Sequence record: PV544177.1
Source of the DNA: Enterococcus phage Revolver
Strand: one strand, 5' to 3'
Length of the DNA stretch: 64,000 bases
The notes under the pieces are model-generated. The model was not told the origin of the DNA and ran no database searches. It worked only from the letters and a program-made list of their open reading frames with translations. Of the stretch, positions 58,772-60,659 are shown piece by piece; within the stretch, counting starts at the first letter, position 1; each line of letters starts with the position of its first letter. The position numbers and the translations under genes are program-made.

Positions 58772-59176
58772 ATGACTATGGATAGGGATAGGACTATAAA
58801 TCATTTTAAAGTAAAGGAGAGTAAAGAGAGGGTAAAGGAAGTTAACAGAGTGAAAGAACTCAAAATCACACAAGAAGTCAGAGTGAAAAACATCAAGAAG
58901 AGATATACAGAGATTGTAGCAGAGTATATAAGTAAAGGTTACCTACTACGATTAGAAAACAAAAGACAGCGTAACGAATTACATTATGCCCTATGCAGTA
59001 TAGAATTAGAAAAAGGAGGGAAAGTTATATGCTTGTTTCTAGTAAACGAGTATAGCAACAATAACAACTATACTATTTTAAAAGAACTAACAGTTAAAAC
59101 GAACAAACAAAAAGAACTCTCTTATATAGAAACAGAAAACAACCTAGCTATTATAGAGGTATGGAAAGGGGTATAA
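58772..59176 (+). CDS. Hypothetical basic protein
   Basis: 134-aa ORF after GGGAGG. Lys/Arg rich. Confidence 0.4.
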   Translation: MTMDRDRTINHFKVKESKERVKEVNRVKELKITQEVRVKNIKKRYTEIVAEYISKGYLLRLENKRQRNELHYALCSIELEKGGKVICLFLVNEYSNNNNYTILKELTVKTNKQKELSYIETENNLAIIEVWKGV

Positions 59177-60030
59177 GAGAGTATAAAAGAGTATAAAAGA
59201 GTATAAGAGTAAGGAGGTATAAGAAGAATGGTAGCATTAAGTTCTATAGCAATTTTAGGGATAGCATTGTTCTTTGCAATAATAGGGGTAACATACGACA
59301 ATGAAAGAATAAGAAAGAACAATCAGAGTAAGAGTAAAAACAAAAGAAAAAGAAAAAAACTATTAATCATAAGAATAAGAGTATAAGAGTATATAAGAGT
59401 ATAAGTATAAGAGAGAAAGGGAGAAAGGAACTCAACTACCTATATAGCTATACACCTATATAAGAGTATAAGAGTAAGAATATAAGAGAGAGCAAGGAAA
59501 GGAAGAAAGGGAGAGAGGAACTAAACTACTAATAAAAGAAAGAAAGAAAGGAATTCGACTACCTAGAATTTCCAATAACCAACTTCACCAGAAACCCGAC
59601 ATAGTGGCGCATAAGTACTTTTTAACAAATAAATGAAATTGTTCCCTATTATGCCCGATTATGCCAGAATAAACTTAGTTACTCTCTTATATACTCAATT
59701 AAGCTAAAATATACCTGATTGCTCTTATACGCTCTCTTATACTCTTATGCACTCTTATATAACTGATTATGCTTATACTACCTTACACGTCCTTATACAC
59801 TCTCTTATGCTCTTATATAGAATTGTACTCTTATACTCTTATGCCTGATTGCTTTTCTTATTCATCTATCTATCTATTTACCTTTATACTCTCTTATAAG
59901 GGCTTATACTAGTTTGCCTTATAATTTATCTATCTATATATTAGAACGGCTTAGATGGGCTTATAGGGGTATTGTAACGGTAGTTACTCTTATACCTGAT
60001 TGCTCTTATACTCTTATATAGAATTGTCCT
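59160..60030. repeat. Field of degenerate (A)GAGTATAAGAG motifs. They run in + orientation at 59160-59520 and as the reverse complement CTCTTATAC at 59680-60030, giving an inverted-repeat architecture centred near 59600
   Basis: There are dozens of copies, e.g. gagtataaaagagtataaaagagtataagag at about 59176 and ctcttatacgctctcttatactcttatgcactcttatata at about 59725. Sub-repeats cctgattgctcttata x3 and tcttatatagaattgt x2 also occur. Confidence 0.7.
59228..59386 (+). CDS. Small membrane peptide with a poly-basic tail (52 aa), not in the track
   Basis: ATG after AAGGAGG. Sequence MVALSSIAILGIALFFAIIGVTYDNERIRKNNQSKSKNKRKRKKLLIIRIRV. Confidence 0.35.
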   Translation: MVALSSIAILGIALFFAIIGVTYDNERIRKNNQSKSKNKRKRKKLLIIRIRV

Positions 60031-60659
60031 TAATTTTCAGACTATTCTATAAAGTGTCCTATTTAAGATTTTCTATTTCCTTATATACTATATACTATAT
60101 ATTTAAGTATTATTATATAGTATTATATATTATAGTATTATATATAAGAGAGGAGAAAAGGAGGAATAGGACATTTTGAGAATTAGGGGGCTAGATGTTA
60201 GGTAGCTAGTCAGATATAAGGAAGAATAGTAGTTATTGTCTATATAGTTCTGTTTAAGGGGCTTTATATAGTTACTAGGTAAATTATAAGGGAAAGGCTT
60301 ATAACGTCTTATACGAGCTTATAGGTGTGTTTAAATGGCTATGGTAGAATTATACATATATTAAGGTATAAAGGGATAGTAGCAGAAAGTTATTAGATTA
60401 GTACTATCAAGAATAGACAAGGGGCTAGATGCTTGTTATTTAATCAGATTATGAGTTTTATTTGTTAAAAGCAAGAATGCTGTTATATAAGGGTTTATAG
60501 AGGTTAGGGGTAAACATCTTCCCTAGGGAGATTGTTAACAGTATAAATAAACTAGTGTTATTTAATAAAAAGTTTCATCTTTCCTATTGACTTATTATAA
60601 GAGTTAGTATAGTATAAGGGGTGTAGAAGAGAGCTACAAATAAAAAAAATAGTTACCTA

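Follow-up and report, generated by a model that had tools for sequence, protein, structure and literature searches.

The DNA described here is a 64,000-nucleotide stretch (the window) of the genome of Enterococcus phage Revolver (sequence record PV544177.1), and the element in question is a repeat-filled, nearly gene-free interval at 59160–60650. Open reading frames (ORFs) on the + strand cover about 0.90 of the window, and the longest interval free of them, with a cut-off of 60 amino acids, is 59177–60683. A first, sequence-only reading of this DNA had noted the high coding density elsewhere and the gap here, and had proposed a genome terminus or terminal-repeat boundary. The gap is indeed the largest in the window, although one genuine gene, encoding a small membrane protein (59228–59386), lies within the interval that had been called gene-poor. 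By BLAST, the window belongs with the Herelleviridae of Enterococcus, in the subfamily Brockvirinae, and is nearest to Kochikohdavirus. Two close relatives are a metagenome contig (L023; 91.5% identical over 2.5 kb, gaps included) and a Logan contig (L036; 93.9%). The non-coding stretch itself gives only partial BLAST matches, of about 72% identity, in 69 records, beneath which the annotation is either none or a hypothetical protein. Rather than the ordinary genes whose presence in homologous genomes would speak against a terminus, all six Kochikohdavirus loci fetched have a gene-free gap of 0.8–1.0 kb at the matching position. Judging from sequence comparison, the region is most likely the concatemer-junction side of the long direct terminal repeat (DTR) of an SPO1-like Brockvirinae phage of Enterococcus.

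The most conspicuous occupant of the interval is an octamer, TATAAGAG, which reads CTCTTATA on the opposite strand. There are 24 exact copies in the window, compared with 5.6 ± 2.4 expected from shuffled sequences, and 24 was reached in none of 100 shuffles; 21 of these copies fall within 59119–60603, leaving three in the remaining 62 kb. Eight exact copies are on the + strand at 59172–59488, a span that has none on the − strand, and ten are on the − strand at 59684–60018, with none on the + strand in 59565–60050. A single − strand copy, at 59119, is upstream of the left array, within the preceding gene. With up to one mismatch, the left side has 14 copies on the + strand and 2 on the − strand, and the right side has 1 and 13, respectively. 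The octamers are irregularly spaced, 8 to 96 bp apart. The purine content per 100 nt has both its extremes for the window here (a maximum of 0.82 at 59454 and a minimum of 0.27 at 59796), with position 59565 between them, and it is at 59565 that the octamer orientation and the purine/pyrimidine bias both reverse. Thus, the inverted motif arrays described from the letters alone are real and cleanly split between the strands, and the nested sub-repeats CCTGATTGCTCTTATAC and CTCTTATATAGAATTGT are found within the right array. “Dozens” of copies was too high a count (there are about 18 exact copies, or about 27 with one mismatch), and the arrays, said to fill a left and a right half, cover only 59160–60020, the rest being an AT-rich element (60045–60180) and a non-repetitive leader (60181–60580). 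The AT-rich ATTATATAG tract that had been pointed out is present, but is better seen as the core of a 117-bp element bounded by an inverted repeat. The exact array sequence is absent from the 185k bacterial genomes searched, and therefore is not a host or prophage element; a search of IMG/VR returned EFLK1 only.

To the left of about 59565 most likely lies the right end of the unique genome and, from 59565 onward, the DTR. Alignment with the termini of other Herelleviridae, a check proposed with the sequence-only reading, places the boundary of the relatives at window 59565/59566, exactly where the octamer orientation flips. EF1TV has annotated left and right direct repeats of 1911 bp, and the records of EF1TV, A155 and ENP2309 all begin at AGATTTTAAAGAA… (AGATTTT…), those of Ef2.3 and Ef2.1 beginning 10 and 19 nt further in. 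A repeat is present at both record ends in ENP2309 (about 4515 bp) and Ef2.3 (4218 bp). For phage 163, PhageTerm gave a repeat of 2105 bp, 104,991–107,095 (PMC9860891); its first base, at 104,991, falls on the A of AGATTTTCAAAAG, and the PhageTerm start maps to AGATTTTC. The annotated repeat of A511 begins …GCGCCCC^AGCATTTTT (^ marks the boundary) and maps to window 59565/6, and that of phage K begins TAAGTACCTG^GGAATTC, behind tandem pseudo-ends. The ends of EF1TV, A155, ENP2309, 163 and A511 all map to 59565/6, and this homology supports a terminal-repeat boundary at the locus. In addition, the box CAGAAACCCGACA..G.GGCGCA, which is located downstream of the ends of the relatives, has one copy in the non-coding region of the window, at 59589.

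On the unique side of the boundary, the left flank comprises three modules (approximately 59374–59444, 59452–59534 and 59532–59564), each of which combines clustered TATAAGAG copies with a polypurine tract and with a pseudo-end resembling ACTACCT, the third module abutting the boundary (Table 1). The pure purine runs upstream of the boundary are 22, 27 and 20 nt long, the 27-nt run being the longest in the window, and polypurine runs are also situated just upstream in relatives: 52 nt in EF24C, 38 nt in EF1TV, 33 nt in 163, 26 nt in Riverwalk and 20–26 nt in phiM1EF22. EF24C has an equivalent modular layout made from other 8-bp units (CTATAGAG… and ATGTACCT…), in which AAAAAAAGTTGTTTACCT is duplicated and the true end is the second copy. 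On the repeat side, the terminal box differs from that of L023 by 1 substitution in 76 nt, conservation of its core extends to every Kochikohdavirus locus and to 163, and its ACCGACTTC is also found 40 nt inside the repeat of phage K. The right array, together with part of the AT-rich element, amounts to an insertion of about 490 bp relative to EF24C-type leaders, and the leader at 60181–60580 has no ORF of 30 or more amino acids.

Table 1. Features at and around the predicted repeat boundary, in window coordinates.
Feature	Position	Strand	Basis or remark
Predicted left end of the DTR, i.e., physical left genome end, …GACTACCT^AGAATTTCC…	59565–59566 (±2 nt)	.	Homology to ends of relatives
In-window part of the predicted DTR	59565–64000	+	Right edge expected about 140 bp past 64000
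Left flank, right end of unique sequence, three modules	59374–59564	+	Repeat family D5
Conserved terminal box, AGAATTTCC…AACTTCACCAGAAACCCGACATAGTGGCGCATAAGTAC…	59565–59644	+	Near-invariant in three relatives
CTCTTATA array (TATAAGAG on −) with sub-repeats CCTGATTGCTCTTATAC and CTCTTATATAGAATTGT, inside the terminal repeat	59645–60044	−	10 exact, 13 one-mismatch copies
AT-rich element, 117 bp, bounded by inverted repeat GTCCTATT…AATAGGAC	60056–60172	.	Second copy in window
Paralogue of AT-rich element, between tail module and UvsW-like helicase gene	2049–2166	.	
Conserved non-coding leader: GGGGCTAGATG twice, GCTTATA motifs, CCCTAGGGAG	60181–60580	+	About 72% identity, more than 40 Brockvirinae records
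Tandem repeat GTATAA(A/G)AGA, period 10 bp, 3.6 copies	59171–59227	+	TRF 59171–59206, 96% matches
Small membrane-protein gene, 52 amino acids	59228–59386	+	PHROG 29866, E = 3.8e-8
Two tandem sigma-A-type early promoters, TTGACT-17-TAGTAT and TTGACT-17-TATGAT, with A-rich upstream element	60587–60688	+	Promoter scan

Tandem repeats that hold near-copies of the end sequence precede the left edge of the DTR in four subfamilies of Herelleviridae. The near-copies are TTACCTGAGG in SPO1 (L032, record end), TAAGTACCTTTG/TAAGTACCTG in phage K (L039, 740–835), GTTGTTTACCT in EF24C (L011, 1369–1531) and ACTACCT in the window (59409–59564). The cut context TACCTG^RGAATT is common to phage K and the Enterococcus phages.

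The last 20 nt of the window align with EF1TV 1749–1768, which is 143 bp before the edge of the EF1TV repeat at 1911; therefore, the predicted repeat would be about 4.6 kb long and would run out of the window. The right edge, …CCTACCCC(G/T)ACCCT^(C/G)GGGTA, is common to EF1TV, ENP2309 and 163, and is also present in L023, in which the repeat is situated between unique-right and unique-left sequence, with minus-strand genes after the right edge (a concatemer-type arrangement).

A separate observation concerns the last 70 nt or so of the terminal repeat: although the genomes are otherwise AT-rich, a conserved block rich in G/C, CCCCGTGGTTTT..GACCGTA.TT.GGGGTGGGGCTAT…ACCCT, is found there (L023, reverse complement, about 7240–7320; L001, 1850–1911; L004, 3520–3596). 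This block resembles the clustered G-tracts reported for the right end of the repeat of phage 812. Further, a perfect tandem duplication of 77 bp (2.0 copies, 100% identical) is located at 63453–63606, within the predicted terminal repeat, where L023 has a single copy. The duplication shortens the ORF at 63406–63537, and it is either a recent event or an assembly artefact.

During packaging, the terminase would recognise the junction and cut at TACCT^AG, after which the DNA internal to the DTR would enter the capsid first and be held on the portal, by analogy with Staphylococcus phage 812. The TATAAGAG/CTCTTATA arrays would be slippage-prone, lineage-specific expansions of short repeats such as are found beside the junction in all relatives, and would most likely serve the end-forming complex as architectural DNA or as protein-binding sites, pointing at the cut from both sides. 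The AT-rich element and the conserved leader would be separate parts of the DTR leader, placed before the early promoters. In phage 812, the left end of the repeat is packaged first; about 120 bp of it are wound around the portal, and A/T is preferred where the minor groove faces inward (PMC12886913). Over the initial 130 bp of the DTR, A/T dinucleotides recur with a period of 9.5–9.75 bp in the window as well as in EF24C, a signal that exceeds the 95th percentile of shuffles; the right array of the window also exceeds this percentile, and the left flank has a period of 8.25–8.5 bp instead. The portal winding in phage 812 and this periodicity together favour, by analogy, an architectural or binding role of the arrays for the end-forming or packaging complex (terminase or portal), and this is the preferred reading. 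The suggestion, made in the sequence-only reading, that the arrays are a putative terminase recognition array is compatible with the data; the terminase genes themselves lie outside the window. Taken as a whole, a DTR junction at about 59565 with putative architectural arrays flanking the cut is regarded as the probable explanation of the locus.

Several points weigh against this explanation. It is through homology to the ends of relatives that the placement of the left end at 59565 is supported. The window contains one copy of the putative repeat, the right edge being outside it, and the cut context in the window is TACCT^AG, compared with TACCTG^AG in the relatives. The A/T periodicity is modest, and it is absent in 163 and A511. 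Substitutions are fewer within the motifs (3/170) than in the spacers (24/450), but this difference is not significant (p = 0.075). Finally, relatives have either no such arrays or very small ones, and the arrays therefore cannot be essential to the packaging mechanism of the family.

A serious rival is that the arrays are functionally neutral, i.e., that they are slippage expansions in a tolerant non-coding leader, the mirror orientation of which merely follows from the strand composition of two independent seeds. The window, L023 and L036 differ mainly by insertions and deletions of repeat units: they carry 4, 2 and 1 copies, respectively, of the 10-bp unit, and the other indels among the three are of 18, 43, 8, 10, 4 and 2 nt. 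Variation of copy number by whole units among such close relatives (94–97% identical) is what neutrality would predict, as is the lack of a significant difference in conservation between motifs and spacers. The arrays are also confined to one lineage. To the left of the boundary, the three close relatives have TATAAG/CTTATA counts of 10/0, 10/0 and 8/0, compared with 0/1–2 outside the lineage; to the right, they have 1/15, 2/16 and 2/16, compared with 1–2/3–4; with so few copies elsewhere, the arrays are therefore fast-changing, lineage-specific expansions. However, the same counts reveal a strict partition of orientation at the boundary that has been preserved in all three close relatives, a short tandem repeat and a polypurine tract are found at the junction in every relative examined, and the window and EF24C share a near-helical A/T periodicity on the DTR side. 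Taking both sides into consideration, neutrality is somewhat unlikely.

A little less likely again is that the region is, or contains, a replication origin of the phage, with the octamers as iterons and the 117-bp AT-rich element as the unwinding element. The AT-rich element has two copies in the window, compared with 0.01 expected by chance, and folds as single-stranded DNA with z = −4.3. Homologous elements are present in EF24C (L030, 2506–2624) and EFDG1 (L029, 3025–3153), and the four copies, of about 118 bp, share the boundary (A/G)TGTCCTATT…AATAGGACA. The inner motif CCTTATATAC, which is found in three of the four, resembles the array unit, which counts for an origin; the helicase-side copy carries TTTTATATAC in its place. 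The paralogue directly precedes the helicase gene and a wHTH gene, and its place ahead of the helicase gene is kept in every Kochikohdavirus record; this also favours an origin, as does the further copy in EFDG1, which adjoins the tRNA array. To our knowledge, however, no origin has been mapped in the subfamily Brockvirinae. There are no DnaA boxes in the region, and the irregular spacing of the octamers and their split over two orientations are unlike phased direct iterons. The helicase-side copy is without an accompanying octamer cluster, and the AT-rich element is missing from EF24C-type repeat leaders. For Listeria phage CKA15 and phage K, origins have been proposed to lie in AT-rich segments of non-coding DNA (PMC12282133), and the AT-rich element of the window may be a candidate origin or a protein-binding element.

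Another possibility, but a very improbable one, is that the left and right arrays anneal to each other in a snap-back hairpin or cruciform with the cut at its centre, thereby priming the duplication of the terminal repeat, as in the hairpin-intermediate model for T7 (PMC4281155). When 59365–59850 is folded as single-stranded DNA, the left array pairs with the right array, with the box at the apex (ΔG −53.4 compared with −32.5 kcal/mol for shuffled sequences; z = −5.3). This z-score is inflated, because shuffling destroys the strand asymmetry, and the arms are only about 75% complementary. Furthermore, EF24C and 163 are without a comparable inverted repeat across the boundary, so the hairpin cannot be the mechanism of the family.

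Marginally less likely still is that the repeats are transcriptional elements: TATA-like boxes, an insulator or dead zone between late read-through and the early genes, or a minus-strand non-coding RNA. A scan for intrinsic terminators found none, leaving no terminator between the upstream genes and the repeat, which is in keeping with this reading; a repeat-containing transcriptional dead zone has been reported in Listeria phage CKA15 (PMC12282133), and the strand composition of 59600–60100 resembles that of a minus-strand transcript. However, apart from the two early promoters, promoter-like matches are at the level of chance (11 compared with 12.8 in shuffles), and the motif is nearly missing from the other 62 kb. 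No Rfam family matched at E ≤ 1 across 58.5–61.5 kb, and covariation in the leader is unconvincing (term −0.76, a result not relied on, the L023 coordinates being mis-registered). A search of the region for tRNA and tmRNA also gave none. Protection of the ends by Chi-like sites was dropped: known Chi sites are GC-rich, even though the orientation would fit, an exonuclease from the nearer end meeting the 3′ side of each array.

Upstream of the boundary, the gene for the small membrane protein has homologues annotated in relatives (e.g. Sw5_145 and EF24C ORF132). The C-terminal tail of the protein is encoded by purine repeats and differs between relatives, with insertions of 43 nt in L023 and 38 nt in L036, and the 10-bp tandem repeat in front of the gene runs into its ribosome-binding site. 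A coding role for the small + strand ORFs at 59747–60179 was considered and rejected, because they are frameshifted in L023 by indels of 8, 10 and 4 nt.

Downstream of the boundary are small genes behind strong sigma-A promoters, so that the boundary does stand beside an early-gene array, as had been supposed. A cassette of about 40–90 nt (A-rich upstream element, TTCATCTT..CTATTGAC, −10 element) precedes at least 15 small genes, at 53060–57670 and 60560–63780. The cassette thus occurs to either side of the repeat boundary, and the early/host-takeover gene array therefore extends well past the terminal repeat. One gene of this array has a counterpart in Enterococcus phage EnP, an Efquatrovirus siphophage unrelated to the window phage. 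In this gene (60684–60908), 183 nt (60720–60902) are 99.5% identical to an EnP gene (PP468605.1, 1605–1787), suggesting that phage families with a common host have recently exchanged genes.

The window phage is one more case of the known long terminal repeats. The closest likeness is to the DTRs of the Enterococcus Brockvirinae (EF1TV, ENP2309, Ef2.3, A155 and 163; 1.9–4.5 kb), the boundary sequence and terminal box of which are homologous to those of the window, and which also have a non-coding gap (0.6–1.0 kb), a polypurine tract, a duplicated pseudo-end and early genes with sigma-A promoters. In the Kochikohdavirus relatives, as in the window, the gene for the small membrane protein is just upstream of the boundary. 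What sets the lineage of the window apart is the leader insertion of CTCTTATA octamers with the AT-rich inverted-repeat element and, on the left side, TATAAGAG in place of the CTATAGAG/ATGTACCT 8-mers of the relatives.

For Twort-like phages, the junction motif TAAGTACCTGGG, the long terminal repeats and their early-gene content are already known (PMC7596081). The Kayvirus junction, which has this 12-bp motif, is similar to that of the Enterococcus phages in its TACCTG^RGAATT cut context, upstream tandem pseudo-ends, pyrimidine-rich first repeat bases and ACCGACTTC box. It differs in belonging to another subfamily, in its 8.5-kb repeat and 35-bp upstream units, and in having neither a polypurine tract nor mirrored octamer arrays. 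When the Kayvirus-type motif pair TAAGTACCTGGG / CCCAGGTACTTA was looked for, the window boundary was found to carry TACCTAGA only. TACCTGAG spans the cut once in each Kochikohdavirus locus, and the SPO1 record has two copies of it within its final 110 nt; as for an inverted Kayvirus-type motif, L023 has CTCAGGTA about 140 nt past the right edge and EF1TV has none.

In T7, which has a terminal repeat of 160 bp, CCTAAAG arrays lie beside the repeat, and the phage, which packages from concatemers, must duplicate the repeat (PMC4281155). The T7 heptamers are in a single orientation with a spacing of 13 bp, and most of them are found beyond the repeat, on the right of its left copy. The window arrays do not share this combination of one orientation, regular spacing and a position outside the repeat: they are irregularly spaced and in opposite orientations, both run towards the left boundary, and the right one is located within the repeat. 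Repeated short sites also flank the terminase cut, on one or both sides, in lambda cos (the cosB R sites) and SPP1 pac (pacL-pacC-pacR). These phages differ in having cohesive ends or headful packaging and no long exact repeat, and the likeness of the window arrays to them is one of sequence layout. A parallel with the (TAGGA)n repeats and AT-rich dead zone of Listeria phage CKA15 was dropped, as the architecture differs: the Listeria arrangement is not equivalent, because in A511, a relative of CKA15, the boundary is only 60 nt after the last gene, without a large gap.

In the literature searched, no description was found of how pseudo-ends, cut context and terminal box recur in four subfamilies, nor of the Brockvirinae polypurine tracts. 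This recurrent layout and these tracts come from sequence comparison of a handful of loci, and are leads rather than findings. They invite a joint reading, which is put forward as a speculation of low probability: a shared Herelleviridae end-forming module, combined with polypurine priming in the Brockvirinae and with lineage-specific arrays as DNA for terminase or portal binding or wrapping. The module at the left edge would comprise the tandem pseudo-ends, a TACCTG^RGAATT-type cut site and a ACCGACTTC-type box, features that are observed in SPO1, phage K, A511, the Brockvirinae and the window. The pure polypurine tract of 20–52 nt immediately upstream might work like a retroviral polypurine tract, in that a stable purine-rich RNA:DNA hybrid or a triplex would set the start of rightward strand-displacement synthesis, thereby duplicating the repeat.

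Knowledge of the physical ends and of the repeat length, predicted as about 4.6 kb, is needed for the genome to be oriented and annotated correctly, and knowledge of the terminus helps in gauging the transduction risk of therapeutic Enterococcus phages. The layout of pseudo-ends, cut context, terminal box and polypurine tracts recurs in phages of Enterococcus, Staphylococcus, Listeria and Bacillus, and gives concrete targets for mutation. The octamer arrays, being variable in copy number, constitute a natural series for asking whether flanking repeats influence packaging.

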